Part shown: positions 21,821-38,206 of the stretch, in pieces
How positions within the stretch are numbered: the stretch's first letter is position 1
Layout of the letters: each line of letters opens with the position of its first letter
DNA from: Candidatus Woesearchaeota archaeon
GTDB taxonomy: Archaea; Nanobdellota; Nanobdellia; Pacearchaeales; GW2011-AR1
DNA: 64,000 nucleotides
NCBI GenBank assembly: GCA_964514585.1
Contig: CAZETU010000006.1
Coordinates: forward strand, 1 to 64,000
Direction of reading: 5' to 3'
The notes under the pieces: generated by a model
The model's input: only the letters and a program-made list of their open reading frames with translations
What the model was told of the DNA's origin: nothing
The model's database searches: none
Position numbers and translations under genes: made by a program

Positions 21821-23701
21821 TTAGTCTAGGTTTGCGTTTATGACTCTAACATCTGGTGACCATAGTGAAACTTTGTCGCCTTTGAACCTTACTCCTCTTG
21901 CTACTTTTTGGACTAGTTCTCTTCTGGCTTTGTCCATATAGAATTCCATGAATTTTTCTGGTTGTTCTTGTTTTAGGATTTTCCAGAATAGTCCTTGGAT
22001 GTTTGGGTAGGGAAATTTTGTGACGACGATTGAATTGCATTTTTCTCCGGCGAAGTCCACTCCCCTTGAACATTTCGTTGTGAAGAGAATGTCTTCTTCG
22101 CCTGATGTGAATTCGTCGATGTTTGTGTTACCTCGGGATTGGATATCTCTTAATCTTTCTTGAGTTATTAGGTTGTCGAATTTTAGTCTTGCATTTTCTT
22201 CTTCGGTTGGGAGATCTTTGAATGCTGAGACATGGACTAGCGTTGGGGGCTTTGCATTTGCCATACACAAATCTAATATTTTTAGATACATGTTTCTTGT
22301 GATTGTCCCATTTTTGTAGTTTGAGAAGCTACAGTTTCTTTCGAGGCCTGTTCGTTGTTTGTAGATTTTCCCTGGGTTTTTTGTTTCGGCTTCAACTACT
22401 TTGAAGCTATCTAGGCCGAAGATGTCTTTTAGGACTTGCTCTGAATGTAATGTTCCTGACATCATAACTAGGACGTTGTTTTGGTCTACTAGTTCTTGGA
22501 GTTTTTGGGCGAGGTTGATTGAGACTAGGCTGACCATAATGGTGTCTTCGGATTTTTTTGAGAAGAATCCTTTTTGGTTTTTGTCTTTTTCTATTTTGTC
22601 GATTGCGATGTATGTTTCGTCTAGGAGGTTTTCGAATATTCTGGCAATCTCTACGATGCTATTGTAATAGTTGAGTTCTTCGTCTTCGGCGAGGTTTGGA
22701 TTTTCAAGGACTGTTTCTATTAGTTTTATAATTGGGGAAGATTTTATTTTTTGAATGTCAACTATTGGTGGGGAGAAAAGCATGTCGTTTATTTCATGAA
22801 TTAGTTCTTTGACTTTGGTTCGTTTTTCTTGGTCTTTTGGGACTAGGCTTGAGAGGGCAGAGTGGAGTCGGTTTAGGTTGATTTTTCTTTCGTTAGCGAA
22901 GCTGTCTAAGAATTCGTCGCATTCGTCGATTATTTCTAGGTCTGTTTTTGGCTTTCGTCCCATTTGGGTTTCGATTTGATATTTCATTGAGTTGAAGATT
23001 AGGACATCAGCGTCTTTGTAGGATTTGTATTGGTCATAATATCCGCAGCCAGTTTTTCTGCAGAATAAGGCGTATTCTTTTCCGCAGATTGCTTCGTATT
23101 TTTTCTTGTTGGTTTCTGGGAGACCTTTTGGATTTACTTCTGCGGGCATTAATGGAGCCCAGTATGGACAGGCTGGTGCGATATTCATTCTTTTGACGTC
23201 GGAGGCTGTGGAAAAATCTCCTTTTTCTACTTCTGGGTTCATGTCGACGTATTTTAGAAGTTGTTCTGTATTTTTGTCTCGGATTTCAATTGTACAAGGG
23301 AGTTCTGGGTCGTCGGCTCTTTCTCCGCTGAACGGACATCTGAAATTATTTCTGCCTTTGATGACTGCGATATTTAGAGGCTTTTTGTCTTTGAGGATGA
23401 ATTGTTTTTTTGTGTAGTCTGTTTCGTATTGTTCTTGGAGGGATTTTATTGGGACGACTATGGAAGTTTTTTTGAAATGTCTTGCGAGGTTTAGGGCGAT
23501 TGCGCTTTTCCCAGAGCCGCAAACTCCTTTGATGAAGATGATTTTGTTGCCGTCATTAATTGCGTCTAGGATTTCTTTGACTATGTCTGCTTGGGTTTTT
23601 CCGTTTGAGAAAGTTAGGGGCGGAAGTTCTTCGCTTGAGCTACTGAATAAATTTGCCCCATCGCCTGAATCGTCCTCGGTTTTTTTATATAATGACCACA
23701 T
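21821..23701 (-). CDS. XPD/DinG (Rad3)-like SF2 helicase with Fe-S cysteines
   Basis: Walker A GVCGSGKS, KGRNNF.C, several Cys, IIDECD, MSGTL, RGVDF, Q..ARGVR. Confidence 0.8.
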   Translation of the reverse strand: MWSLYKKTEDDSGDGANLFSSSSEELPPLTFSNGKTQADIVKEILDAINDGNKIIFIKGVCGSGKSAIALNLARHFKKTSIVVPIKSLQEQYETDYTKKQFILKDKKPLNIAVIKGRNNFRCPFSGERADDPELPCTIEIRDKNTEQLLKYVDMNPEVEKGDFSTASDVKRMNIAPACPYWAPLMPAEVNPKGLPETNKKKYEAICGKEYALFCRKTGCGYYDQYKSYKDADVLIFNSMKYQIETQMGRKPKTDLEIIDECDEFLDSFANERKINLNRLHSALSSLVPKDQEKRTKVKELIHEINDMLFSPPIVDIQKIKSSPIIKLIETVLENPNLAEDEELNYYNSIVEIARIFENLLDETYIAIDKIEKDKNQKGFFSKKSEDTIMVSLVSINLAQKLQELVDQNNVLVMMSGTLHSEQVLKDIFGLDSFKVVEAETKNPGKIYKQRTGLERNCSFSNYKNGTITRNMYLKILDLCMANAKPPTLVHVSAFKDLPTEEENARLKFDNLITQERLRDIQSRGNTNIDEFTSGEEDILFTTKCSRGVDFAGEKCNSIVVTKFPYPNIQGLFWKILKQEQPEKFMEFYMDKARRELVQKVARGVRFKGDKVSLWSPDVRVINANLD

Positions 23702-23813
23702 ATTATGCCTCTTTAGGATTAGAAATCGGGGTGATGGTTTAAAGGCTTTGTTGTAACTGAAGATACTTATTAATCATATAAAAATTTATATATATTTATG
23801 CTTGTGAATTGTT

Positions 23814-24053
23814 ATGGATGGAGTTTTAGAGAAGCAGGTTTTGTTTGATGGTGGAGAATGCCCAAAAAAATGGGTGGAGTATGGGGGTGCACCTGGGCAA
23901 ATCCCGGATGAATTTGTTGAAAGTTGTAGGATGGGTGCGGCGAATTTACATGTATTTAGAATGGGCTGGTATCGTGAGTGTTTTTCATGTGGCTATAAAA
24001 TAGGCTGTCAAGAACGTGCTTGCAATACTGGAGAACAGGGCGAAGGCTGTTGA
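23814..24053 (+). CDS. Hypothetical small Cys-containing protein
   Basis: 79-aa ORF with CFSCG; TTTATA upstream. Confidence 0.45.
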   Translation: MDGVLEKQVLFDGGECPKKWVEYGGAPGQIPDEFVESCRMGAANLHVFRMGWYRECFSCGYKIGCQERACNTGEQGEGC

Positions 24054-24133
24054 GAGTTGGTGTGTTATTTTATTGTGGTATATATATAGGTGGTTGATTT
24101 TTAGTGAATCGTCTAAATCTTTTTTGGCTTTTA

Positions 24134-24180
24134 TCGACGGTGATGTTGTTTTCTTTATCCTTGAGTAAAATATTTTATCC
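24134..24180 (+). promoter_or_regulatory. Tripartite upstream motif, copy 1 (TCGACGGTG..TTATCCTT..TTTTATCC)
   Basis: The same three blocks recur at 29956-30003 with spacings within 1 bp and the same distance to the TATA box and ATG. Confidence 0.6.
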
Positions 24181-24265
24181 GAATTTTCTTGAAAGTTACA
24201 GGTACTAATGTTTAGTGATGAAAAACTGGCGAAAGTGTTAAATAGATATATGTTTTTAGTTGGAT

Positions 24266-27200
24266 ATGAAATCGGAAAAAACATGTATTAGTTTGGTGGT
24301 TTTCTCGTTGCTATTATTGACTTTTGGTTTTAGTTTTGTTAGTGCTGTTCCGATTAGTACAACTTCTCATGATTCAAATCCTGAAATAAACCCCGAGTGG
24401 TCTACAGCTGGTATTCCTGTTGATTATACAGTTACTATTTGTAATTTGCTTGGTGGTGGTGGTGATTCTATAGATGAAGTTAGAATATATCAGAGTTCTG
24501 GATACACTATTATTAGTGCTGATGAGAAGGATAATTGGTTTAAATCTGCATGGAATCCAATATAGGAGTTTTACCAATATACAGCTAATGGTCCAATCTA
24601 TTATATTGATGAAGATGAATGCACTGATTTTACCTTTACCGCTCAGACACCTGATGAGGCTGCTTGTTCTGTTGAATGGAAATTTGAGACTAGAGATTTA
24701 AATAATGTTTGGAAAGAGATAACTGACACCACAAGTGTTGACAAGCTTAAGCCGTCTCTTGTTAAAACGGTAACTGGTTCACAAATGCTTAATGGACTGA
24801 ATATTCCTTGTCCTAATGGTCCTGCAGATGGAGAGGAGTGCTGGATACGTCAAAGTACTGATATTGAAGTAGCTGTTAGTGATCAAGGTGTATGTAATCC
24901 TCCAAGCGGACTTGATTGGTGTGAGATAACATATATGTTAGATGGAAGTGGACCTAATTTAGTTGTATATGAGGATTTGGATGGAGAATTGACGTGGGGA
25001 CATACACTCTCTTTTGAAGAGGATTCTTTACATGTGTTAAGTGTTACTTGTATGGACCGAGCTGGTAACTTATTAGAAGATATTGAGGCATTTAGGGTTG
25101 ATGATACTCCTCCTGAAACCACAAAAACATATGATATTCCTAATTTTGCTCCCTTTGGAGATATAAATAATGGTGCGCCATATCCTCATTATATTGACAC
25201 AACCACCTCTATTGTTTTAGATGCTATTGATCCTGATCCTACTGGCGAATCATGTAATATTGGTGATGTGACAACTTATTATTTTGACACCATTGTGCCT
25301 GATTATCAATGTGAGAATGAGGGCGAGTGTCAGCCTATTTGCAAGCCTCTTCCTTTTTTACCTGTTGGTACATTTGGTGAACCATCTGTAACGCCTTGTA
25401 GTTGGGAAACTTATCTTGCTCCTTTTACAAAGGGCGAAGAGTCATGTCATATTTTACAGTTTTATAGTGTTGATGGTATTGGTAATATTGAGAATATGAA
25501 TCATCAATGTGTATTTGTAGAAGATAAGCCACCTATTGTTAATAAGAACAATGGTGATGCAATTTTTGATTTTGGTGAACCAAATTTTATAACAAGTGTT
25601 AATTCAAGGGGGGGGTTTCATTGGATAACATCAGATATGCCCATAACTTTTACTTGTACTGATCAAGAGCCACATCCGTCTGGAAATGAGGAGCTTTGTT
25701 TTAAGGTTTCTTATGATTATCCTAATTGGGATTATGTCACTAATGATTATTGTGATGGTGAATTAGAAAATGGATATTGTTGTGTTGATGCGACTCCAAA
25801 TGACCCTTTTGATTTTTACTTTAATGAAAATGAAGAGTCGATGCATAATTTAGAATATTTCTGTAGGGATGCTCTTGGTCATAAAAGCGATGAACATATT
25901 CAATATTATAAGGTTGATGATACTGCTCCTAGTTTGATTGAGAAGACTATCGATGGACCAAGGATTGCATTGCAAGGTGAATGTCCTCCAAGGCCTGGTA
26001 CAGATGACATTTGTCATATTGATGGTGTGACTACTATTGGTGTTGAAGTAGAAGACGGTGGAGAGATTTGTGCTATTGGTGTTGACGAGTGTAGGTGGAA
26101 GTATAGTGTATATAATGAATTTAAAGGATGGTCTCCATACACTGAATGGTATTATACTTTCCCAATAAACTTCCCTGAAGAATCTAAGCATGAGTTAGTG
26201 ATTGAGTGTTATGATGAATTAGGTAACACAATGGATGATACTGAGATATTTTATGTTGATAAGACTGCGCCTGAGACGACTTTTAGCGTTACTGGTCCAC
26301 AAATTCCTGATCCAATATTGGAGAGTTCTGATTATCCAAGGTATGTTGATACTGTTTCAAGGATAGTATTAAGTGCGACTGATGATATTGGACCTCATGA
26401 TTCTGGTGTAGATGAAACTTATTATAGAGTTACTCAAGTTGATGAACAATATTGTGAATCTGCTGCATCGGGATGTAGTGCTGCTCAAGGTGATGGTGTT
26501 TTGGGCGGATGGGCAACTTATTCTGTGCCGTTTGGAATTGATGAGTCTTGTCATTTGATTGAGTATTATAGTGTTGATAATGTTGATAAGATTGAAGATA
26601 CTGAGAAGCAATGTGTGTTTTCTGACCATACAGCGCCTTTAATTGAGAAAGAATTTGTGGGTTCACAGATTCCAAATCCTGCAATTGATTACCCATATCC
26701 TCATTACATTAATTCAGACACTATGGTTTATATAGTTGCAACGGATCCAGAGCCACATCCGTCTGGAATGAATAACGTTAAGTATAAAGTTACTTTGGTT
26801 GGAAATGATGCTTGTATGTCTGAGAATGTTTGTGAACTGACTGAAGGAAGTGGAGAGTTTATACCTATTAATGGAGGAGAAGTGAGATTTCCAATATTGG
26901 AGGATTCTTGTCACTTGATTGAGATAGAGGCTGAAGATAATGTTGGTAAAAAATCTGCGCATAAACAATGTGTCTTTGTTGATAATCAAAAACCCTTAAT
27001 TGAAAGAGAAATAATTGGTCCTAAGATTGGAGATTGTGCGCAGGGGCATATTGATGATTGTTATATTGACGGCGTTACAACTATTGAAGTAACCGTAACA
27101 GATCCAGAGCCACATCCAGTTAATGGAGTAACTTGTGAGTGGGATTATGATGTTTTGGGTGGAGAAAAAACAGGAACGGGAGATAGTGGATTAACGTCTC

Positions 27201-29236
27201 CTTTTATTATAAGTTTCCCCGAAGAATCAGAGCATTTGCTGACAATTATATGTAGGGATGATTTAGGAAATGAAGTTGTTTATGATGAAACATTATTGGT
27301 TGATAAGACTGCTCCTGGAATTAATAAGTATTATGGACAACCAAGGTATTATTCTGATATAGCTAATGATAATTTGTGTTATAAGGATGGTGATAATCGG
27401 TGGAATTGTTACGAGAGTTTGGCTCCTGCATTATCTGATATAGGTTATACAGAACTTCCAAGAGGGAATATAATGTATTCGACTGAGGGACCTTTGTTGG
27501 AGATAAGTGTTCAAATGTCTGGGCTTAAAGCTAATACAGATTATCAATTGACACTTAATGGAAGAGATGGTAATGATGGTAACTCTGAATTAGGAAATAA
27601 TTGTGATAATCCAAACGGACCAAAAGCAGGATATGTTCATGCTTGGGAGTGTGGAACTTGGGCTGGAGGTACAGGACAAGAAGGATTTTGGAACTTTGAT
27701 ATGACGGCGACTTCTGATAATGAAGGTAATTATGAATCAACTTATTATTTAGAAATGCCTGATGGTCATTATGGAATAGGACCAACTCATAATTTTGGAG
27801 TAGGATTTATTGTGAAAGAAGCGGCAGATGTTCCTGGTGGTAGTAATTATCCACCAATTCTTATGGAATATTCTGGTCTTGACTGGATGGTTGGGCCGTA
27901 TAGTTATCCAATGTGGATTAATTCAAATACTCCAATATTTGGTGAAGTAACTGATGATGGTCCTCATAAGTCTGGAGTAAGTGTGGTTAAGTATAGAACT
28001 ACGAGAGTGGATGACGAATATTGTTGGAATGATGATGATAATTACGATTGTGAAGATGCGGTTGTAGATGGAGATTGGACAACTGTTGATTCTAATGATT
28101 ATGATTTGTTTGAGTTTAATATAGATGAGGATTCATGTCATTTGATTGAGATATATGCTGAGGATAATGTGGAAAAGAATGACTTACATAAGCAATGTGT
28201 TTTTGTTGATAATTTGCCACCTACTCCTGTTAAGACCGTTGGAGAACCAAGAGATATTTGGAATGGATTGGATGCTAAGTTTTATGAATTAGATGATTTC
28301 TGTCTAATTGAGAATAATTGTTGGAAAGTTACAATGGATACTCCTATATCGATGAGTTGTGAAGATTCTGAACCTCACCCAGTAGGGAATGAGAGGGTTT
28401 GTTTCAATGTTGAGCTTGATGGAGATGATTGGACTGGTGGAGTGAACGGATATTGTAATGAATATAATGGTGTAATGAATGATGAGGGATATTGTTGTTT
28501 TGATAGAAGTGTTGGAGAGGATTTTAGGTTCTTAGAATCTTCTGAGCATAACTTGAAATTTTATTGTGAGGATGCCTTGGGTAATAGAGGTCCAATTGAT
28601 GATGAAAAATTCAAAGTAGATGGAGAAGGATTTGAAATTCAAATTAATAAGAAATGGAATTTGATTTCTGTTCCTGTAGTTTTATTAAATGATGATCCTG
28701 AAGAAGTATTCAAGAATGTTGATGTTGATGAATGTATTCAATCTGTGTGGGCTTATGATGGAGTTGGAGATGAGTGGACTGTTTGGACTCCTGGAGATGC
28801 TCCTGATAATTTGAGAGTTGAACCTGGCTATGGATATTGGATTGTGGCAAATCACGATTGTATGTTAATGATTGGTGGAAGCTTATTGTCTCCTGGTAGA
28901 ACTCCCCCAAGTAGAGAATTAGTTTCTGGATGGAATTTAGTTGGATATTATGGAATGGATGACCAGGAAGGATATTATGGTCCTAATGGGAATGGAAGGG
29001 ACGCATATTGTGCATTTTATAGTTTAACTGGAGGATTTTTTGATAACCCGCAATGGAGTGAGGTGTCTGGATATTGGGAACTATATAATCCTGACACTTT
29101 TGAATCCTACTCTCCTGGTGATTCTCTTGATTCTGGAGCTGGATACTGGATATTTATGAAAGATGGTTCGGATGTTTATTCTCCGTCCTCTGTTTGCTGG
29201 GATAAGAATGAGATGTTAGGGGGAATCCTAGCCTAA
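24266..29236 (+). pseudogene. Very large Cys/acidic secreted protein with Ig-like repeats, interrupted by one in-frame TAG (24563-24565): pseudogene, read-through or sequence error
   Basis: ORFs 24260-24565 and 24785-29236 share a frame, and the interval translates openly (WNPI*EFYQYTANG...VTGSQMLNG). Signal peptide at start; nine H-x-L..D..GN..VD..P repeats; C-terminal WNLISVP/GYGYWI domain; no C-terminal TM. Confidence 0.8.
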
Positions 29237-29267
29237 CATTTAAATAGGCTATGAATCTAATTTTAAA

Positions 29268-29936
29268 ATGAGAATTTTTTCCCTTGCTTCACTGGCTGTA
29301 TTTTTGTTTTGTTTTACTTTTGTAGCTGCTCAAGGACTTTTACTTCCGAATCAGTTCTATGGTGATGCTATTTATAATAATGTACCTGCAAATGGTATTG
29401 TTGTTGATGTTTATATTGATGGTATAAATGTTGGAAGCACAAATACCGTTAATGGGACATATGGTGGTGAATCTAATTTGCTTTTAATTAAGGATTCTGA
29501 TGGGTCTAATTTTGGGAAAACTGTTAATTTTTTCTTGAACGGTGTAGATACTGGGCAGACTGCTATTTATGATAACGGAGCAATTGTAAAAATAGATTTA
29601 ATCGCTAGTGGAAGTGTACCTGTCGTAGATAGCCCTCCCGCAAAGACTGGTGGAGGCGGAGGGGGTTCTGGTGGTTCTTTACCTCCAGTTGTTAATGATT
29701 CTGAAAACACTGAAAGTGCGATGAATGCTATTAGTTCTTCGGATGATGAGGGAGTTGTTGCTGTAGTTGTTGATTCTAATGATGGTCAGGATCAAGAAGA
29801 AGAGATGGTCGGATTTTTTAGTGCTATAACTGGTGCGGCTACTGGAGTTGTTGGAAGTACGGCTGGTATTATCGTTATTGTTTTTATTCTCTTAATAGCT
29901 CTTGGACTTATTCTTGTTAAAGTAAAGAAAAGGTAG
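29268..29936 (+). CDS. Small membrane-anchored surface protein (PxxFYG domain, Gly/Ser linker, ITGA + C-terminal TM)
   Basis: Signal peptide, PNQFYGDA, GGGGGSGG linker, FFSAITGAATG, TM helix, KVKKR. Confidence 0.8.
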   Translation: MRIFSLASLAVFLFCFTFVAAQGLLLPNQFYGDAIYNNVPANGIVVDVYIDGINVGSTNTVNGTYGGESNLLLIKDSDGSNFGKTVNFFLNGVDTGQTAIYDNGAIVKIDLIASGSVPVVDSPPAKTGGGGGGSGGSLPPVVNDSENTESAMNAISSSDDEGVVAVVVDSNDGQDQEEEMVGFFSAITGAATGVVGSTAGIIVIVFILLIALGLILVKVKKR

Positions 29937-29955
29937 TAATTTTGTTTAGAATTTG

Positions 29956-30003
29956 TCGACGGTGTTAATGATTTTAATTATCCTTTATTTGTGATTTTTA
30001 TCC
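29956..30003 (+). promoter_or_regulatory. Tripartite upstream motif, copy 2
   Basis: TCGACGGTG 29956, TTATCCTT 29978, TTTTATCC 29996; TATA-like TTATAA at 30062. Confidence 0.6.
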
Positions 30004-30089
30004 TTATTGTCGACGGGAAATCCTTCATTGGACAAAAGTAGTAAAAAAGTATGGGCAAGACTTATAATAATATGTTGTGATATTATTTT

Positions 30090-30302
30090 ATGAAAAGTGG
30101 ATGTTTGCCTAAATTATGTTTTGATTTCTTGAGAGGCGGGTTAACAAACCCTTATGCAAATTTTGTCATACTGAAAAATGTGAGAGGCGGATTGGTGAAT
30201 CCTTACGCACATTTTGTCATACTGAAAAATGTGAGAGACGGGTCAAAGAACCCTTACACACATTTTGTCATACTGAAAAATGTGAAAGGGGGTTTAAATT
30301 AA
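30090..30302 (+). CDS. 70-aa peptide made of three 17-aa repeats (RGG-LxNPYAHFVILKNV); may be a leader peptide or non-coding
   Basis: ATG 22 nt after the TATA-like element; stop is 3 nt before the next ATG; encoded by the 51-bp repeats. Confidence 0.4.
   Translation: MKSGCLPKLCFDFLRGGLTNPYANFVILKNVRGGLVNPYAHFVILKNVRDGSKNPYTHFVILKNVKGGLN
30131..30283 (+). repeat. Three tandem 51-bp repeats with two hairpins per unit (plus a partial fourth to about 30300)
   Basis: Units at 30131, 30182, 30233; invariant ATTTTGTCATACTGAAAAATGTGA; variable hairpin GGGTT-AACA-AACCC / GGATT-GGTG-AATCC / GGGTC-AAAG-AACCC. Confidence 0.95.
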
Positions 30303-30305
30303 TAA

Positions 30306-32834
30306 ATGAAAACAAACTTAATAATTTTAAGTTTATTAGTGAGTGTTTTAATGACTAGTGTTGTTAGCGCTGATGTTTTATTTGAAGACAACTTTAACGA
30401 CGGTGTTGTTTTAGACGACGGATGGGATGCAGATTATTTTGAAACTAATGATGACGGAACTCCTTCTGTAGATGTTCATGCTATCGATGATTCGTGGCAT
30501 GGTTCGGAATATGTTTACGATGGTTATTCTGTTAGAATTGAGGACGATGTTGCTGTTTACCACACAGTTGAAACTTTCGGGTACGAAGATATTGAGTTAT
30601 CTTATTGTGCTAGAATTACTTCGGACAATGGTGATGTCTTAAGGATTGGTTGGAAAGAGGCCCCTATTGGGACCATAACTCCAAGTAGTTCGTACTGGAC
30701 TAACAATTGGAATGAAGTAGAATCAACCGTTGAAGATGACGCTTATCGATGTGTTGAGTTTAACCTTGGGTCAAACGCAGAAGACACAGAGATTATTATT
30801 GCTTTTTTCATCGATGATGGGGAAGGAGATAATGGTTTATTTGATAATGTTAAGGTAGCTGGTGATGAAATTGTTGACTCTTGTAGTGATTGCGATGTTG
30901 AAATCGTTAATCCTGAAGAAGGCATTTTTTATGGTGCCGTTAATGGCGATCTTTGGATCGGTTGGACACCAAGTGGAGATGATTGCGGTAGCGAATGGGA
31001 TGTTTATTATGGTGATTGGGACGGACAAGAATGTGTTTGGACTGATTATCTAGGAGAAACTCATCTTGAGACTGAATTGCCTTGGGATATTAGCTTTACT
31101 AATGAAGGAGAATATTGTGTTAAGGTTGAAGGAGAATGTTGCGATGATGCGACTGAAGGTCCTTTTACTATTGACAATATTGATCCTATTCCTGATGCTA
31201 ATGGGGAAACCTGTTGGTGTGATGATGAATTCTATTGTCCTGGACCACAAGATTGTGTTTCAGAGTGCTGTGACTTACAGTGTGACTATGATCTTTATAC
31301 TTGTTATGAAGGTGATATGATAACACTTGATGGTAGCGGCTCTTATGACCCTGGGATGTTCCCTAGCGGAATTGTTTCGTGGGACTGGTATGTAGATGGT
31401 TCATACGCTGGAGAAGGTGAAACTTTGCCTTATCTTTGTGAAGATGGAACTCAAAATGTACCTGTCGAGTTAGTTGTTACTGATTCTGTTGGAAATACTG
31501 GAACTGATGGTGATTCTAGCATTGATGTTATCAATGTTGCTCCTGTTTGTGAAGGTATTGATGCTGTTGGCGATGTTCCATTAGTTAATGGAGTTGCTGA
31601 AGTTACTTTTACTGGAAGTGCTAGTGATGTGCCTGCAGATATGCCTAAATTAGAATTCAATTGGGATTTTGATGATGGTAATACTGCAACGGATGAGAAT
31701 CCGGTAACGCACGTTTATGATGCTGAAGGTACATATACTGTAACTTTGACTGTTGACGATACTGACGGAGGCATGGATACTTGTGAGCACGTGATTGAGG
31801 TTATCGACCCTGAACAATTAATTGATCAGGAGGTAGCTGCATATTACCCATTGCAAGTTGATTTCGGCGATGACGCTGGAGACCATTGGAGATCTTTCGA
31901 GACTGGTTTGACTGGAATGGGCTTTCATAGCTGTGAGGTTATGATGGGTCCAGAGAGTGACAATCTATTATCAAAATCTTTTGATGATGGAGAGTGTCGA
32001 GTTAGATGGGATAATGATAGTCCGCCACCATGGGGATTAAGAGAAAATCCAACTAACGATGAGCAAGGAGATCACTTCGTTCTTATTAGAGTTTTCAACG
32101 GAACTGATGTTGATTACTTTTCTTTTAACGTAATGGTTTATACTTGGATAATCGATTTGGAAGCAGGATGGAATTTAGTTTCTATTCCGTATGTTCCAAT
32201 GGATTCTAACATTAACGATGCTGATATCGGTGTTTCTCAAATAAAGGACGAGTTGGCTTCTATTTGGTCTTATGAGTACGACGCTAACGGGGACGTAAGT
32301 TCTTGGAAGTGTAGGAAAACTACGGCTGGAGGCGCATGGTCTTCAACATTCTGTGCTGACACAGATACAAAGTTGGATACTATTGTTCCTGGTAGAGGAT
32401 ACTGGTTGAATATGGATGAACCTGCTCAGCTTAAGGGGTTCGGTACTCAAATTGCACAAGGAGAAGGTCCTGGTATACCACCAGAGATTACTGTTCCAAC
32501 TAACAGTTGGGCTTTGATCGGAAGGTACGGTATTCTTGGACACGATGGTCCTTTTGCAGGAGAAACTCCATGGGATGCAGGTGCTATTCCTAAGCATGTC
32601 GCACTAGAGAGTTTGACAAAGTTGGATAATGAATTGCACGTTTTCGATGTTACTGAAGACGCGCATTTGGATGAGGTTTATCGACTATTCAATAATCAGG
32701 GTTACTGGTTATGGGTAGAAGACGAAGCATTGAACAATGCTGGAAGTGAATCTTATGCACCTTTGGACGAATACTACACTGAAGACTTAAGTTGTCATGA
32801 CCAATTATGTGTTAAGCCAATGCCTTTTGCATAA
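30306..32834 (+). CDS. Large secreted acidic surface protein with PKD domain(s) and C-terminal WNLVSIP domain
   Basis: Signal peptide; FNWDFDDG...VTHVY..EGTYTVTLTVDD (PKD); GWNLVSIP...PGRGYWL...QGYWL; no TM anchor. Confidence 0.85.
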   Translation: MKTNLIILSLLVSVLMTSVVSADVLFEDNFNDGVVLDDGWDADYFETNDDGTPSVDVHAIDDSWHGSEYVYDGYSVRIEDDVAVYHTVETFGYEDIELSYCARITSDNGDVLRIGWKEAPIGTITPSSSYWTNNWNEVESTVEDDAYRCVEFNLGSNAEDTEIIIAFFIDDGEGDNGLFDNVKVAGDEIVDSCSDCDVEIVNPEEGIFYGAVNGDLWIGWTPSGDDCGSEWDVYYGDWDGQECVWTDYLGETHLETELPWDISFTNEGEYCVKVEGECCDDATEGPFTIDNIDPIPDANGETCWCDDEFYCPGPQDCVSECCDLQCDYDLYTCYEGDMITLDGSGSYDPGMFPSGIVSWDWYVDGSYAGEGETLPYLCEDGTQNVPVELVVTDSVGNTGTDGDSSIDVINVAPVCEGIDAVGDVPLVNGVAEVTFTGSASDVPADMPKLEFNWDFDDGNTATDENPVTHVYDAEGTYTVTLTVDDTDGGMDTCEHVIEVIDPEQLIDQEVAAYYPLQVDFGDDAGDHWRSFETGLTGMGFHSCEVMMGPESDNLLSKSFDDGECRVRWDNDSPPPWGLRENPTNDEQGDHFVLIRVFNGTDVDYFSFNVMVYTWIIDLEAGWNLVSIPYVPMDSNINDADIGVSQIKDELASIWSYEYDANGDVSSWKCRKTTAGGAWSSTFCADTDTKLDTIVPGRGYWLNMDEPAQLKGFGTQIAQGEGPGIPPEITVPTNSWALIGRYGILGHDGPFAGETPWDAGAIPKHVALESLTKLDNELHVFDVTEDAHLDEVYRLFNNQGYWLWVEDEALNNAGSESYAPLDEYYTEDLSCHDQLCVKPMPFA

Positions 32835-32976
32835 ATTTAATTTTTCTTTTTTTCTTTTTTTCTTTTTTTCTCACTTTGGACGTGAGTATGTAATTTTATC
32901 GTTGGTGTTAGGGCGTTTGGTAAATAGTATATTTGACTATAAAAAAGAATATAAACGGAAGCTGTCGAATATAATT

Positions 32977-33936
32977 ATGGATAAAAAATATCTCTTTGCC
33001 TTGATGGGTTTGCTTATGTTGAGCCTTGTTTTTGCATTTCAAAGTGTGCCGCATACTTTTACTGGTAATGTAACTTTAGATACTGATCCAACTAGGAATT
33101 TGATGGGGTATGAGGTTAGTGCTTCGATCGAGGACTATGGGCTTGGTGTTGTTGGTGAAATTGATTCGGATAGTACGTATAAAGTAAGGATTGATCCTCA
33201 GGGTCGGTCTGGAGAAATAACTTTTTATATTGGTGGTATTGAGGCGTCTCCGACTGCTGTTTATCACATGGGGGAATTTACTTACTTGGATTTAATAATT
33301 GATGAGGTGCCTTCTATTAGCGTCTGTGGTAATGATGTACAAGAGGCTGGGGAACAATGTGATGGTTCTTCGCTTGGGGTTGGAACCTGTGAGAATGTTT
33401 TAGGAATTTTGGATGCGACTGGTACTTTAACTTGTACGAGTGCTTGTACTTTTGATTATTCTAATTGTACTGCGCCATCTTGTGGGGATGGTCTTTGTAA
33501 CGCTGAAGAGAATTGTACGAGTTGTGAGGTTGATTGTGGAGTTTGTGCTGGTGGCGGTGATGATGGTGGTTCTTCTGGTGGAAGTGGAGGAAGTAGTGGT
33601 GGCTCTTCTGGAGGAAGCAGTGGTGGCTCGGCTGGAGGAAGTGGTGAGAGTTTCGTTTTGCTTGATGATGATTTGAGTGATAGTATGAGCACCCCCGAGG
33701 ACTCTGGGGATTTGTCTTTGTTTGGTTCAGACACAAAGAATAGTAATTTTTTCTCTATGATTACTGGTGCTGTAGTTGGGACGTCTGGGGGCAAGGCTAT
33801 TGTTGGGATTATTATTTTGATTATTATTATTGTAATTTTGTATCTTTATACTAGGAAGAAAGAAGTTGAGGTTAAAGTGACTCCTGTTCCTGAGAGGAAA
33901 CCTGTTAAGAAGAAGGTTATTCGGAAGAAGAAGTAA
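32977..33936 (+). CDS. Small membrane-anchored surface protein, paralog of the 29268 gene, with Cys-rich repeats
   Basis: Signal peptide, PHTFTGNV, CGND..EAGEQCDG and CGDGLC..EENC.SC..DCG, GGSSGG linker, FFSMITGAVVG, TM, basic tail. ATG 32977 preferred over 32797. Confidence 0.8.
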   Translation: MDKKYLFALMGLLMLSLVFAFQSVPHTFTGNVTLDTDPTRNLMGYEVSASIEDYGLGVVGEIDSDSTYKVRIDPQGRSGEITFYIGGIEASPTAVYHMGEFTYLDLIIDEVPSISVCGNDVQEAGEQCDGSSLGVGTCENVLGILDATGTLTCTSACTFDYSNCTAPSCGDGLCNAEENCTSCEVDCGVCAGGGDDGGSSGGSGGSSGGSSGGSSGGSAGGSGESFVLLDDDLSDSMSTPEDSGDLSLFGSDTKNSNFFSMITGAVVGTSGGKAIVGIIILIIIIVILYLYTRKKEVEVKVTPVPERKPVKKKVIRKKK

Positions 33937-33967
33937 GTTTTTTAAATGAGAAAGTGTATTTTTGTTT

Positions 33968-34957
33968 ATGGTTAATGAGGAGATAAAGAAGTTGAATTCT
34001 AAGGCTGGGGAATATTCTGGAGTTTTGAAGGGGTTGCAGGCTGAGTTGGGGAAGGTGATTGTTGGGCAGAGTGATATTTCGCAGAAGGTTATTCTTGGGT
34101 TGGTTGCTAACGGGCATATTTTGGTTGAGGGTGTGCCGGGGTTGGCTAAGACTTTGATGATTAGGTCGCTTGCGTCTAGTATTGATTCTGGTTTTGTGCG
34201 GTTGCAGTTCACGCCTGATTTGTTGCCTGCGGATATTACTGGGACGAAAATTTATGATCATGAGAATTCGGTTTTTAAGATTGAGAAGGGGCCTATTTTT
34301 AGTAATTTTGTTTTGGCTGATGAGATTAATCGGGCTCCGCCAAAGGTTCAGTCGGCTTTACTTGAAGCTATGCAGGAGAGGCAGGCGACGATTCATGGTC
34401 AGACTTTTGACATGGAGAAACCGTTTTTAGTTTTGGCGACGCAGAATCCGATTGAGAGTGAAGGGACTTACAAGTTGCCTGAGGCTCAGGTTGATCGATT
34501 TATGTTTAAGATTTTGATTGGGTATCCGAATAAGAGTGAGGAGGTTGAGATTATTAATCGGTTTACTGGTGAGGTTTTTGTGAAGATTGGGAAGATGATT
34601 TCTTCTAAGAAGATTTTGGAGATTCAGGATTTTTGTAAGAAGATTTATGTTGATGATAAAATAAAGGAGTATGTTGCTGAGATAGTTGACGCTACTCGGA
34701 ATCCTGGGGAATATAAGTTGGATTTGGATTCAAAGATTGATTATGGGGCTTCTCCTAGGGCTAGCTTGTGGTTGATTTTGGCGGCTAAGGCTAATGCTTT
34801 GTTTAATGGACGGGGCTATGTTATTCCTGAGGATGTTAAGGAGATTGCTCATGAGGTTTTGAGGCATAGGGTTATTTTGTCGTATGAGGCTGAGGCTGAG
34901 TTGATTACTAGTGACGATGTGATTGAGACTATACTTTCTAAAATTAAGGTGCCTTAA
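33968..34957 (+). CDS. MoxR-family AAA+ ATPase
   Basis: GHILVEGVPGLAKT, LQFTPDLLPADITG, LADEINRAPPKVQSALLEAMQE, ATQNPIE.EGTY.LPEAQVDRF, GASPRA. Confidence 0.95.
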   Translation: MVNEEIKKLNSKAGEYSGVLKGLQAELGKVIVGQSDISQKVILGLVANGHILVEGVPGLAKTLMIRSLASSIDSGFVRLQFTPDLLPADITGTKIYDHENSVFKIEKGPIFSNFVLADEINRAPPKVQSALLEAMQERQATIHGQTFDMEKPFLVLATQNPIESEGTYKLPEAQVDRFMFKILIGYPNKSEEVEIINRFTGEVFVKIGKMISSKKILEIQDFCKKIYVDDKIKEYVAEIVDATRNPGEYKLDLDSKIDYGASPRASLWLILAAKANALFNGRGYVIPEDVKEIAHEVLRHRVILSYEAEAELITSDDVIETILSKIKVP

Positions 34958-35830
34958 ATGAAGGATATTTTGAAGCAGATTAAGATGTTGGATATTACGA
35001 CTCGGGATTTGGTTTCTGGAATTGTGTCTGGGAATTATCATTCGGTTTTCAAGGGGCAGGGTATTGAGTTTAGTGAGATTAGGGAATATAAAACTGGGGA
35101 TGATGTTCGGAATATTGATTGGAATGTGACGGCGCGGATGAATAAACCGTTTGTTAAGGAATTTATTGAGGAGCGGGATTTGAGGGTTTATTTTTTGATG
35201 GATTTTTCTGGGTCGTTTAATTTTGGGGATTTGATTTCAAAGAATAGTAAGGCCGTTCAGTTGGTTGCGAGTTTGATGTTTTCGGCTGTGAAGAATAATG
35301 ATTCGGTGGGGTTGCTTTTTGCGAGTGATAAGGTTGAGAAATTTATTTCGGCTAAGAAGGGGAAGAAACACGCTTTGAGGGTTTTGAAGGATATGTTGGA
35401 ATTTAGCCCTGAGTCTAAGAGGACTGATTTGAATGAAGCGATTCGGTATACTTCGAATGTTTTGAAAAGGAAATCGCTTATTTTTATTGTGTCGGATTTT
35501 GTTAGTGAGGATTTTAGTAATGCTCTTCGGGTTTTGAAGAATCGGCATGACGTTGTTGCAATTAAGTTGAGTGATTTGAAGGAGAAAGAGATCCCTGAGG
35601 TTGGGTTGATTGAGTTGGAGGATGAGGAGAGTGGAGAACAGATTCTGGTTGATACTAGTAGTAAGGAATTTCAGGAGAATTATAAGAAGGTTATTTCGGA
35701 ACATGAGGAGAAATTGAAGGGAACTTTTCGTCGGGCTGGTGTTGATATGATTGAGGTTTTTACTGACGGTGATTTTTCGAAAGGGTTAAATAATTTCTTT
35801 AAGTTGAGAAAAATGAGGATGGTTAGGTGA
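34958..35830 (+). CDS. DUF58 vWA-like protein (MoxR partner)
   Basis: G.YHSVFKGQGIEFSEIREY..GDDVRNIDWNVTAR, KEF.EER, DFSGS, SDF. Confidence 0.92.
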   Translation: MKDILKQIKMLDITTRDLVSGIVSGNYHSVFKGQGIEFSEIREYKTGDDVRNIDWNVTARMNKPFVKEFIEERDLRVYFLMDFSGSFNFGDLISKNSKAVQLVASLMFSAVKNNDSVGLLFASDKVEKFISAKKGKKHALRVLKDMLEFSPESKRTDLNEAIRYTSNVLKRKSLIFIVSDFVSEDFSNALRVLKNRHDVVAIKLSDLKEKEIPEVGLIELEDEESGEQILVDTSSKEFQENYKKVISEHEEKLKGTFRRAGVDMIEVFTDGDFSKGLNNFFKLRKMRMVR

Positions 35831-36780
35831 TGGCGGGCTTTAGTAATTCGTGGATTTTGGTGTTCTTAGTTTTGGTGCCTGTTGGTTTTTATTTTTATCG
35901 TGAAATTACGAAGAAGAAAAAGAAGCAGGCTATGAGTTTTAGTCATTTAGGTTTTATTAAATCGGCTTTGGGAGATAAGAAGAAATCGAAGCGGAGTGAT
36001 TTGCTTTTTTATTTAAGTTTGAGTGTTGTGGCTTTGATGATTATTGGATTTAGTGATCCACATATTCCTTTGAAGCAGACGCATGAGGGGGTTAATGTTG
36101 TTTTGGTTATGGATGTTTCTGGGAGTATGAAGGCGACTGATTATTCGCCGAATCGTTTGGAGGCGGCTAAGGAGTCTGCGATTACTTTAGTTGAGTCTTT
36201 GAAAGAGAATGATCATGTGGGGGTTGTTTTGTTTGAGAGTGGGGCAACGACTGGGGCATATCTTTCGCCGTTTAAGGAACAGGTTGTTGACAAGATTAGG
36301 GGGATAACTCAGCGAGAGGGTGCGACTGCGATTGGGGACGGCCTAGCAACTGGGATTGATATGGCGACTTCGATTCCGAATAAGAAGAAAGTTGTGATTC
36401 TTTTGAGCGATGGGGTTTCTAATTCTGGCATGATTTCACCTGAGGAGGCTATTGTTTTTGCTAAGGATAATTCTATTCAGGTTTATACTGTTGGGATGGG
36501 TTCTACTGAGCCTGTTGTTTTGGGGCATGATTGGTTTGGGAATCCGCAGTATGCTGAGCTTGATGAGGCGACGTTGAAAGCGATTGCTGAGAATACTGGG
36601 GGTCGGTATTTTAAGTCGGTTGATAGTGAAACTTTAAATGATGTTTACAAGAATATTGGGGATGAAATTAAGAGAGAGCGGGAAGAAACTCCGATTGGGA
36701 AATGGTTTTTCTTTTTGGCTTTGGTAGTTGTTATATTGGAGGCTTATTTGAGATATGGTAAGAGTCGGATTATTCAGTAG
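35827..36780 (+). CDS. BatA-like vWA domain membrane protein
   Basis: N-terminal TM, DVSGSM MIDAS, T.IGDGL, LLSDG..N.G, ELDE.TLK.IA..TGG.YF, C-terminal TM. Confidence 0.9.
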   Translation: MMAGFSNSWILVFLVLVPVGFYFYREITKKKKKQAMSFSHLGFIKSALGDKKKSKRSDLLFYLSLSVVALMIIGFSDPHIPLKQTHEGVNVVLVMDVSGSMKATDYSPNRLEAAKESAITLVESLKENDHVGVVLFESGATTGAYLSPFKEQVVDKIRGITQREGATAIGDGLATGIDMATSIPNKKKVVILLSDGVSNSGMISPEEAIVFAKDNSIQVYTVGMGSTEPVVLGHDWFGNPQYAELDEATLKAIAENTGGRYFKSVDSETLNDVYKNIGDEIKREREETPIGKWFFFLALVVVILEAYLRYGKSRIIQ

Positions 36781-38206
36781 CTTGGTTTTGGTTCTTTTGA
36801 TGGGAAGTGTTAGTGCTGGATTTTTTAGTGATGATATTCAGTTTTCGGTTTCTCAGAAGGATTATTTTTTTTTGGTTGGTCAGGAGTCGGGACTGGAGTT
36901 TAATATTAGTAATGATTTGGGTCGGGATGTTTCTGGGATGATTACTTATGCTTTGAGTGGGCCTGGGGTTTCTAATGTGCAGAGTGCTTCTTATACCGTG
37001 AAAGATGGGGAGAGTAGTGAGGCGGTTGGATTTGGTATTGTCTCTTCTCCGACTGATATGGTTTTGAATTTGAAGTTTACTTATGATGATATGGAGGTTG
37101 TTTTGGATGATATTGGATTACATTTTGTTGAAAAGCCCGAGGAGCAGCAGAATGAGGAGGATAAGCAGAAGAGTAGCGAGGAGAAATCAGAGAGTCAGCA
37201 ACAACAGAGTCCAAGTCAACAACAGCAGAGTCAGCAGTCGATGCAACAGAAGGTGTCGAATAGTCAGGCGGCGCAGAGTGGGCAGGAATTGAAGGAGCAT
37301 ATGAATCGGGATGCGGAGAAAGCTGAGGCGGCTAAGCAGGAATTTATGGAGAATTTGCAGAAGAATGAAGAGTTGATGAAAGAGCATCAGGAATTGGCTG
37401 ATCAAGGATTTGAACAGAGTGGCGGTGAGTTGAATCCTAAGGATGGGGATTCAAGTTCTGGGGATTTTAAGTTTGATTACGAAGACAGTGAGGGGAATGA
37501 GGCAAGTTTAGAGGGGCGAATGGAGAATGGGACTTTGACTGATTTAAAGAAGACTAATAGTGCTGAGCAGAAAAAGTTGGAGAGTTTGGTTAGGGCGGAT
37601 GAGAGGTTTATTGATTTGGATGAGAAGCTGAGCTCTACAGGATTTTCGGAGAAGGGCGTTAGTTATTCTAATTTTGAGAATACAAGTGTTGTTAGTTTTA
37701 ATTATACTGATGAGTTTGGGAATGAGGAATCTGTTGTTGCTGAGGTTGAGAATGATGTTGTAAAGAAGGTATACCTGGATAAGGAGCGGAATTATTTTTG
37801 GATGTGGGGGCTTTTGGCTGTTCCGATTTTTTTGGTGTCGGCTTATTTTTTGAAAAGGAAAAGGAAAATGGTTGGACTTGATGATCCGATGCCTAAAAAG
37901 GTTAAGCCGTTTAATTATAGGGGTGAGGCTCGTAAGTTGTTGAAGAAAGCTGGGGTGGAATTTGAGAAGAATAATTTTAAGGATGCTTATGGGTTGGCGA
38001 ATCAGGGAATTAGATTATTTTTGTCGTATAAGAATGGGTTGAATAAGGAGTTGACGAATTATGAGATATTGAAGGGGATTGATGGATTACCTAAGGAGAC
38101 GTCGGAGATTTTTGATTTGTGTTGCTTGGTTGAGTTTGCGAAGTATAAGCCAAATCGGAAGGATTTTGGGGAGATTGTTTCTTTTGGGGAAAGAATTGTT
38201 GGGTAG
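36755..38206 (+). CDS. Membrane protein with Gln/Glu-rich segment (last gene of the MoxR operon, BatD/DUF4129-like)
   Basis: Signal peptide, QQQ low-complexity block, one TM, C-terminal LT..E...FAKY domain. Confidence 0.6.
   Translation: MVRVGLFSSLVLVLLMGSVSAGFFSDDIQFSVSQKDYFFLVGQESGLEFNISNDLGRDVSGMITYALSGPGVSNVQSASYTVKDGESSEAVGFGIVSSPTDMVLNLKFTYDDMEVVLDDIGLHFVEKPEEQQNEEDKQKSSEEKSESQQQQSPSQQQQSQQSMQQKVSNSQAAQSGQELKEHMNRDAEKAEAAKQEFMENLQKNEELMKEHQELADQGFEQSGGELNPKDGDSSSGDFKFDYEDSEGNEASLEGRMENGTLTDLKKTNSAEQKKLESLVRADERFIDLDEKLSSTGFSEKGVSYSNFENTSVVSFNYTDEFGNEESVVAEVENDVVKKVYLDKERNYFWMWGLLAVPIFLVSAYFLKRKRKMVGLDDPMPKKVKPFNYRGEARKLLKKAGVEFEKNNFKDAYGLANQGIRLFLSYKNGLNKELTNYEILKGIDGLPKETSEIFDLCCLVEFAKYKPNRKDFGEIVSFGERIVG

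Follow-up and report, generated by a model that had tools for sequence, protein, structure and literature searches.

Tandem two-hairpin modules ahead of a strong Shine-Dalgarno sequence in a DPANN archaeon, with a probably translated leader frame

In a 64,000-nucleotide stretch of DNA from a Candidatus Woesearchaeota archaeon (contig CAZETU010000006.1, positions 1 to 64,000; hereafter the window), the leader of a gene for a large secreted protein carries an array of three 51-bp repeats. Judged from its sequence and that of its relatives, this array consists of a two-hairpin RNA module, repeated in tandem, that has not been described before, belongs to DPANN archaea of the Pacearchaeota type and is not in Rfam. 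The explanation that accounts best for the data, and in which belief somewhat outweighs doubt, is that the repeats are structured leader RNA modules arranged in tandem 5′ of a strong Shine-Dalgarno (SD) sequence, UGAAAGGRGGU, and act together with a putative translated leader and a handover of ribosomes to the main gene. At the window locus the module probably lies inside a short translated leader frame. Structured-RNA and leader-ORF readings are both supported and are not mutually exclusive.

Three repeats of 51 bp, each with two hairpins, had been described in a first-pass annotation prepared from the letters of the window, and their anatomy stands as described. Tandem Repeats Finder reports a period of 51, 3.3 copies and 82% matches at 30130–30298, and a 23-nt core, ATTTTGTCATACTGAAAAATGTG, occurs in three exact copies at 30160, 30211 and 30262, with none expected from 100 shuffles. 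Direct reading gives a 24-nt stretch that is identical in all three units, the core without substitutions to which the annotation had drawn attention. The units of the window follow a common order: TGAGAG, a short hairpin A, a TTAYR linker and a hairpin B formed by 8 bp, a bulged G, 3 bp and a TAC loop. The arms of hairpin A are GGGTT/AACCC in unit 1 and GGATT/AATCC in unit 2, a paired G-C to A-T swap that had been proposed as compensatory and that is read directly in the sequence; in unit 3, GGGTC/AACCC contains one C·A mismatch and hence forms 4 bp. Hairpin B reads CACATTTT-G-TCA-TAC-TGA-AAAATGTG in units 2 and 3, and that of unit 1 carries CAAATTTT, resulting in one A·G mismatch. Two further claims of the annotation are borne out by the coordinates in Table 1: a partial fourth unit supplies the purine-rich word before the main ATG, and the repeats lie in frame within an ORF for 70 amino acids. 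The main gene is the first of a run, being followed by AAA_3 (MoxR), DUF58 and VWA/BatA genes as assigned by Pfam. A search of the genome for additional copies of the core, also suggested in the annotation, returned none in 1.04 Mb (~90% complete) with up to 3 mismatches allowed.

Table 1. Features of the leader region and main gene (window coordinates; R1 is a covariance model defined in the text)
Feature	Position	Strand	Description
TATA-like hexamer TTATAA, predicted promoter	30062..30067	+	28 nt upstream of ATG 30090
Leader ORF, 70 codons plus TAA	30090..30302	+	reads through three units; stop 3 nt before main ATG
Unit 1	30130..30180	+	TGAGAG, hairpin A 30138-30151, linker TTATG, hairpin B 30157-30182; R1 score 74.8 bits
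Unit 2	30181..30231	+	hairpin A 30189-30202, hairpin B 30208-30233; R1 76.9 bits in genome search
Unit 3	30232..30282	+	hairpin A 30240-30253 (4 bp), hairpin B 30259-30284; R1 81.1 bits
Partial fourth unit TGAAAGGGGGT	30283..30293	+	extended SD of main gene, 12 nt before ATG 30306
Main gene, 842-aa secreted PKD-domain protein	30306..32834	+	Pfam PKD_4 5e-19

The module is shared by relatives of the window organism. BLAST searches against these relatives uncovered pieces of the unit at several loci of the same genus, each with an identical architecture in which the last unit leads into TTGAAAGGAGGT and then into a start codon. A covariance model built from 17 units (R1, alignment A1) matches 26 of the 49 genomes of the genus, with one to four matches in each, and scores more weakly in further genera of the same family. 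For a second model, R2, 50 units were used; it matches 15 of 150 other genera of the family, each sampled at one genome. In the window genome (G000), R2 adds one divergent unit, C2:84936, before a secreted-protein gene, and the module is thus represented there by one locus plus one divergent locus. The last units of relatives all end in TTGAAAGGAGG. A scan of metagenomes extended the set by just five loci, each of the same kind, and viral contigs contain no exact match to the core. Searches of Rfam 15 at gathering score recovered a single tRNA in the whole window, the E-value mode yielded only chance-level matches at 29950–30400 (E 0.37 to 6.6), and no Rfam family was found on type-II or family-level leaders.

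Compensatory changes have preserved the pairing of both hairpins. In alignment A2, which is model-based and fitted to the model, pairing holds in 96% of cells for the 8-bp helix of hairpin B, seven of whose eight pairs have changed on both sides, and in 94% for the upper 3-bp helix, whose middle pair is C-G in 14 sequences and U-A in 15; overall, 9 of the 11 pairs of hairpin B have changed on both sides. All five covariation measures exceed those of 500 out of 500 shuffles and drop when the partners are slid, a significance that is overstated by the shuffle statistics as the sequences are related and not independent. Hairpin A was tested without an alignment on 50 units, because its register shifts slightly between subtypes. 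Its best stem averages 4.98 bp, compared with 3.68 (sd 0.13) for shuffled sequences, and not one of 1000 shuffle sets reaches 4.98, an excess whose significance is overstated for the same reason. The best-scoring stems comprise 38 different 5′ arm sequences, a few of them belonging to short 3-bp stems; 35 of the 50 begin at one or other of two neighbouring positions, and most loops read AAA, AGA or GGA.

From these comparisons the family unit consists of UGARAG, a hairpin A of 5–6 bp of any sequence closed by a purine tri- or tetraloop, a UCAY linker and a hairpin B of 8 bp, a bulged purine, 3 bp and a triloop. The loop and the bulged purine of hairpin B are conserved in the main subfamily, and in some members the whole top of this hairpin is swapped for an unrelated sequence with the stem retained. 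It is the position and orientation of the units that assign them to the sense RNA, because the counts of G·U and A·C and the folding of sense and antisense strands show no strand asymmetry. The fold of the whole window leader is not unusually stable (z = −1.2), since the units compete with one another. Several known classes of element were considered and set aside. Box C/D sRNA, K-turn and hammerhead assignments fail on inspection, since the 5′ strand of hairpin B contains no GA and a CUGANGA is missing. Mimicry of a tRNA-Met anticodon arm is contradicted by the upper 3-bp stem, whose covariation between C-G and U-A supports a triloop and not a 7-nt loop. A CRISPR-like array, a DGR template, an internal promoter and a terminator were dropped as their defining features are absent from the sequence, and a conserved 6-codon mini-ORF (MQILSY) inside hairpin B was rejected, its ATG being present in only some units.

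Among the inspected matches, every unit is in sense orientation, with an SD or the next unit immediately 3′ of it; the last unit adjoins GGAGG, and the start codon follows 7–20 nt further on. The SD beside the module is TGAAAGGRGG. No unit is antisense and none lies inside a gene. In about 17 genomes the downstream gene encodes an FtsZ1-type protein with Tubulin and FtsZ_C domains. Other downstream genes code for archaeal pilin-like proteins, several families of signal-peptide proteins and small membrane proteins, and in other genera a cold-shock protein gene follows the module. At three loci (L063, L076 and L055) units are situated between genes of one operon, far from any promoter. Of the possibilities raised in the first-pass annotation, an unrecognized tandem structured cis-acting RNA is thus borne out: the spread through genus and family, the compensatory variation in both hairpins across the family, which had been named there as a check, and the sense position 5′ of an SD all support it. 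The annotation had also reasoned that orthologous loci without repeats would tell against its proposals; the orthologous locus in a related genome (G025), whose PKD protein is 66% identical, keeps two units and an in-frame leader ORF.

SDs of the GGAGG type are rare in the window genome, where they precede 97 genes. The extended form TGA[AG]AGG[AG]GG with a start codon after it is found ahead of only about nine, a set that includes genes for an S-layer-like 719-aa protein, a pilin, FtsZ, the PKD protein of the window and other secreted proteins. The 3′ end of the 16S rRNA of this organism is GGATCACCTCCT (also given as GGAUCACCUCCU). Because of this sequence the UGAAAG part of the word is unexplained by anti-SD pairing, and an extension of the SD–anti-SD duplex through UGAAAG was ruled out by the 16S tail CCUCCUAUUUU. 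The SDs of the genome likewise led to rejection of the UGAAAG context as a general SD feature. Apart from the window copy at 30283, the word TGAAAGG(A/G)GGT with a start codon was located at C1:209880(−), C2:7669(+), C2:56842(−), C2:83351(+), C2:84989(+), C3:71074(+), C1:86814(−) and C2:22259(+). The S-layer-like gene of the window genome has a different, GC-rich hairpin directly before this word. At a pair of orthologous loci, L050 (G019:C34) and L056 (G030:C6), the module is placed between two genes: in G019 the frame of the upstream gene continues through the module to a stop 2 nt before the next start, and in G030 the frame ends before the module.

The leader ORF has to be viewed against the promoter architecture of the organism. 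Among 866 long ORFs of the window genome, TATA-like hexamers start at −29, −28 and −27 in 172, 215 and 163 cases respectively, over a background of about 15 per position. As these hexamers peak 27–29 nt before start codons, the organism is, on promoter evidence, overwhelmingly leaderless. The ATG at 30090 conforms to the geometry predicted for a leaderless start, with TTATAA at the appropriate distance. Analogous ATGs are frequent in the family: 23 of 47 module leaders have a TATA-positioned 5′ ATG, and 21 of the resulting 23 ORFs run through all modules to stop within a few nucleotides of the main start. The stop and start overlap as ATGA at five loci (L044, L058, L060, L080 and L065), and in the window they form TAA TAA ATG (TAATAAATG) with a 3-nt gap. 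The layout is that of termination-reinitiation, with co-directional, near-abutting or overlapping ORFs and an SD before the second start in all.

In the region ahead of the first unit, counted in 12 leaders with at least 18 nt between the 5′ ATG and that unit, the ATG frame contains stops at 1 of 305 codons, compared with 28 of 304 and 36 of 295 in the other frames. Of 22 canonical units, 20 have two of their three frames open. When any upstream in-frame ATG through the last unit is accepted, 33 leaders divide into nine that use the frame of the window (frame a), 11 that use frame c and 13 in which such a frame is absent. Orthologous leader ORFs show no sequence relationship in their N-terminal parts, yet their frames are open. 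Where the transcript begins with AUG, selection thus probably keeps the frame open to the main start, and translation would matter in cis; the peptide itself is probably a by-product, because the frame differs between loci and the 70-aa product is without homologues. About half of the module leaders lack a 5′ ATG, with predicted starts at A-TC, A-TA or A-AC, and several of these have stops in all three frames, so that the module must also work untranslated.

A repeat leader peptide, the second option of the annotation, survives in part: a translated leader ORF is favoured by the leaderless geometry and the open frames, and a conserved peptide is opposed by the differing frames and by the absence of any homologue among 5.8 billion protein clusters. 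A comparison of the 70-aa product with Pfam gave one match only, at chance level. It seems scarcely credible that this product is a functional molecule, either as a 17-aa repeat peptide or as a multi-core precursor cut after GG, even though the ORF is probably translated and the type-I units at the window and at two loci of G025 (G025a and G025b) are read in one frame as NPYAxFVILKN(V/L)(R/K)GG. The frame differs for the type-I unit at the G003 ftsZ gene. In homologous units the sequence is ...LKDLKES, ...LKDLTET and ...LKNLRV, so the GG of LKNVRGG is not conserved; it occurs only in type-I units and at the SD, where GGAGG itself encodes it. The neighbours of the array are genes for the PKD protein, MoxR AAA, DUF58, VWA/BatA and a helicase, and the nine neighbouring ORFs (21821–38206) include no C39 peptidase, ABC exporter, maturation or modification genes. 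The lack of synonymous variation in the core is a signature of constraint at the level of RNA rather than protein. The double-glycine precursor envisaged in the annotation loses its footing on the unconserved GG and the missing peptidase and exporter.

The two surface-gene promoters at 24134–24270 and 29956–30092 share the upstream blocks TCGACGGTG, TTATCCTT and TTTTATCC together with the geometry from TATA to ATG, in agreement with the earlier remark that the ATG at 30090 sits where the paralogous 24266 promoter places its start codon. The ATG at 24266 begins a signal-peptide protein (MKSEKTC...) and that at 30090 the leader ORF (MKSGC...), which may therefore be what is left of a formerly leaderless gene start.

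At the window locus, the preferred model of a structured and translated leader would operate as follows. Transcription would start at or near 30090 and place an AUG at the 5′ end of the transcript, onto which ribosomes would load in leaderless mode. Translation of the 70-codon leader would then carry them across all three modules to termination at TAA TAA ATG. Handover to the SD-led PKD gene could proceed through termination-reinitiation, through melting of a predicted AACCCUU:AAGGGGGUU pairing that would mask the SD, or through both. The hairpins and their number would probably set the level of downstream translation or the stability of the mRNA; the hairpins may also be binding sites for an RNA-binding protein, and protection of the 5′ end against decay is an alternative role. 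The SD of the window is predicted to be mostly paired, with a probability of being unpaired of 0.28 in the full leader and 0.08 in the last unit alone, and its predicted partner is AACCCTT (30247–30253), the 3′ arm of the third hairpin A. In these folding models the masking is a local feature of the window and not family-wide, because the module causes no general masking or unmasking of SDs: the mean predicted accessibility is 0.43 for native leaders and again 0.43 once the upstream part is shuffled.

Orthologous ftsZ leaders contain from 0 to 3 units. The ftsZ leader of the window genome has none (CATGAAACTTGAAAGGAGG), and that of G003 corresponds to a G000-like leader with exactly 51 additional nt between ACTTGA and AAGGAGG, as measured at this one junction. 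Species whose FtsZ proteins are 95–97% identical have 1, 2.5 or 3 units, with 2.5 to 3 in G001, G027 and G066; in G001 and G066 neighbouring units are identical to each other. Besides the window, the type-I unit is present at two loci of G025 and at the ftsZ gene of G003. On this comparative evidence, units undergo duplication and loss, and they seem to move from one leader to another where both have the TTGAAAGGAGG context. Structured ftsZ leaders may be general in the order, with fast turnover of their sequence.

A neutral or selfish expandable repeat, similar to a MITE or REP and spread by slippage or recombination between leaders sharing TTGAAAGGAGG, with hairpins of importance to this spread alone, would account for this variability among close relatives, for the identical adjacent units and for the appearance of the type-I unit both at the G003 ftsZ gene and at surface genes of G000 and G025; the inserted block is, moreover, flanked by repeats of the local TTGAAAG context. 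Genes for Y1 transposases are present in 12 of the 49 genomes and are distributed unevenly, in 11 of the 26 that bear the module and in one of the 23 without it, a co-occurrence that may be phylogenetic. The idea is nevertheless improbable, given that a genome has only one to four units, never antisense or intragenic and always at an SD, and that the stems covary between old, diverged copies across genera. Two IS200-like copies of 666 bp in the window genome (C5:30963–31628 and C5:59408–60073) are 99.85% identical and have one TGA inside the Y1 transposase frame; their ends form GC-rich hairpins unrelated to the module and their insertion context is different. A link to IS200/IS605, a MITE/PATE and a REP were accordingly ruled out by the unrelated ends of the element, the few copies and the sense-only placement at the SD. 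An operator array in the DNA, palindromic and recognized by a dimeric transcription factor just downstream of the transcription start, has still poorer prospects and is judged highly unlikely. Hairpin B is a near-palindrome, no strand asymmetry of wobble pairs is apparent and the 51-bp spacing corresponds arithmetically to about five helical turns. Against such an array, the dyad of hairpin A is kept with 38 arm sequences, even within single genomes, and a sequence-specific DNA binder cannot explain a dyad preserved with dozens of sequences; hairpin B has a conserved one-sided bulge, and the units between operon genes mentioned above are far from a promoter.

It is rather unlikely, and not so remote as the foregoing, that the array is a purely untranslated cis-regulatory RNA, in which the hairpins, above all the bulged hairpin B beside the SD, would serve as operators for an RNA-binding protein or as 5′ stabilizers against 5′-to-3′ decay and the ORF would be incidental. 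The half of leaders that keep the module without a 5′ ATG, the conserved loop and bulged purine of hairpin B in the main subfamily and the resemblance of the downstream genes to a small division and surface regulon are all in line with it; a beta-CASP RNase gene is encoded in the genome, and 5′ stabilizers such as STAB-SD are known in bacteria (PMC4113751). However, TATA-positioned ATG frames are open far beyond chance and end at the main start, at odds with translation being irrelevant, and the loop of hairpin B is unrelated in many members, which argues against a single sequence-specific protein partner. Beyond the preferred reading of a structured leader with handover, a broader proposition can be offered tentatively, as a conjecture that is more apt to fail than to hold: the module would be the cis element of a post-transcriptional regulon specific to tiny-genome archaea, acting on ftsZ, pilus and surface genes through a structured, often translated cassette, with hairpin B read by an RNA-binding factor or by the ribosome and the copy number of 0 to 3 serving as an evolvable dial of expression.

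The kinds of mechanism invoked here, namely structured leaders, leader ORFs and translational coupling, are known; what is new is a modular, copy-number-variable and partly translated cassette in a leaderless DPANN archaeon. Translational operator hairpins are exemplified by the coat-protein operator of MS2/R17 and by the leaders of ribosomal-protein genes. The module shares with them a small hairpin, a bulged purine and a short loop beside a ribosome-binding site, but here the loop is not conserved across the family and the elements are in tandem. REP and BIME sequences occur in hundreds of copies, in both orientations and mostly 3′ of genes. They resemble the module in their hairpin units of about 35–50 nt, tandem arrays and variable copy number, whereas the module has one to four copies per genome, always sense and always at an SD. 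The 5′ hairpins in the leaders of ompA and of the Lactobacillus S-layer gene slpA are mRNA stabilizers. STAB-SD of Bacillus thuringiensis cry3A is a stabilizer of the mRNA 5′ end (PMC4113751). Stabilizers of this type bear a likeness to the array in that purine-rich, SD-like words (GAGAGGCGG, GAAAGAAAG) and hairpins occur in the leaders of surface-protein genes with very high expression, at sites other than the main start. The internal words of the array are, by contrast, poorly complementary to the 16S 3′ end GGAUCACCUCCU of the organism: GAGAGGCGG shares only GAGG with the SD consensus and the type-II word GAAAGAAAG shares none of it. The elements described here are also tandem and modular, and their hosts are archaea with a different decay machinery.

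Closest in layout are coupled leader ORFs. Coupling by termination-reinitiation is documented for pairs of genes in archaea as well as bacteria (PMC6728339), an increase of downstream translation through reinitiation at leader peptides has been proposed (PMC4833913), and in mycobacteria leaderless short ORFs act as attenuators, with a poly-Cys sensing run (bioRxiv 10.1101/834739). The likeness lies in a short ORF that starts from the 5′ end of the transcript and stops near, or overlapping as ATGA, an SD-preceded main start, and in the conservation of an open frame but not of the peptide sequence. In the present family the leader ORF is instead assembled from a covarying two-hairpin module in 0 to 3 copies; an ORF is missing from half of the homologous leaders, and no sensing codon run is visible.

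Almost nothing is known about how DPANN archaea control their genes, since these organisms either have not been cultured or grow only together with hosts. The module would be, as far as could be found, the first defined cis-acting RNA motif for Pacearchaeota/Woesearchaeota. It marks a coherent set of genes for division, pili and surface proteins, and shows the handling of the few strong-SD genes within a translation system that is nearly all leaderless. The series of 0 to 3 copies among close relatives amounts to a natural experiment on leader structure versus expression. In practical terms, the motif can be used in RNA family libraries, in the annotation of leaders and in avoiding false calls of small genes in such genomes.

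Several minor observations concern related leaders and the repeat itself. On the minus strand at about 936–1000 of G003:C5 (L048), a second ftsZ-type promoter is accompanied by a single decayed module; with a degenerate SD and start codon and no ftsZ downstream, the whole looks like a dead duplicate of the leader. The ftsZ leader of another sequence, L112 (JAGLQO010000004.1), contains units of the form GCGGCGG-hairpin-TTGGGCAAA before the word GAAAGGAGG, and in the ftsZ leaders of more distant Pacearchaeales (L129–L163) different tandem or long hairpins precede the GAAAGGAGG word. DNA of the window occurs in salt-lake metagenomes but turned up in no RNA sequencing run, and contigs from four salt-lake DNA runs break at the repeat. 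In run X5, contigs that end at window positions 30262 and 30298 derive from another organism or locus of the same lake; the end of hairpin B and the SD are all that they have in common with the window, after which they enter a different gene, with loose ends TGAAAGAAAGACGGTGTGTCCATCATTCAA... and ...AAATGAAAAGATTATT.
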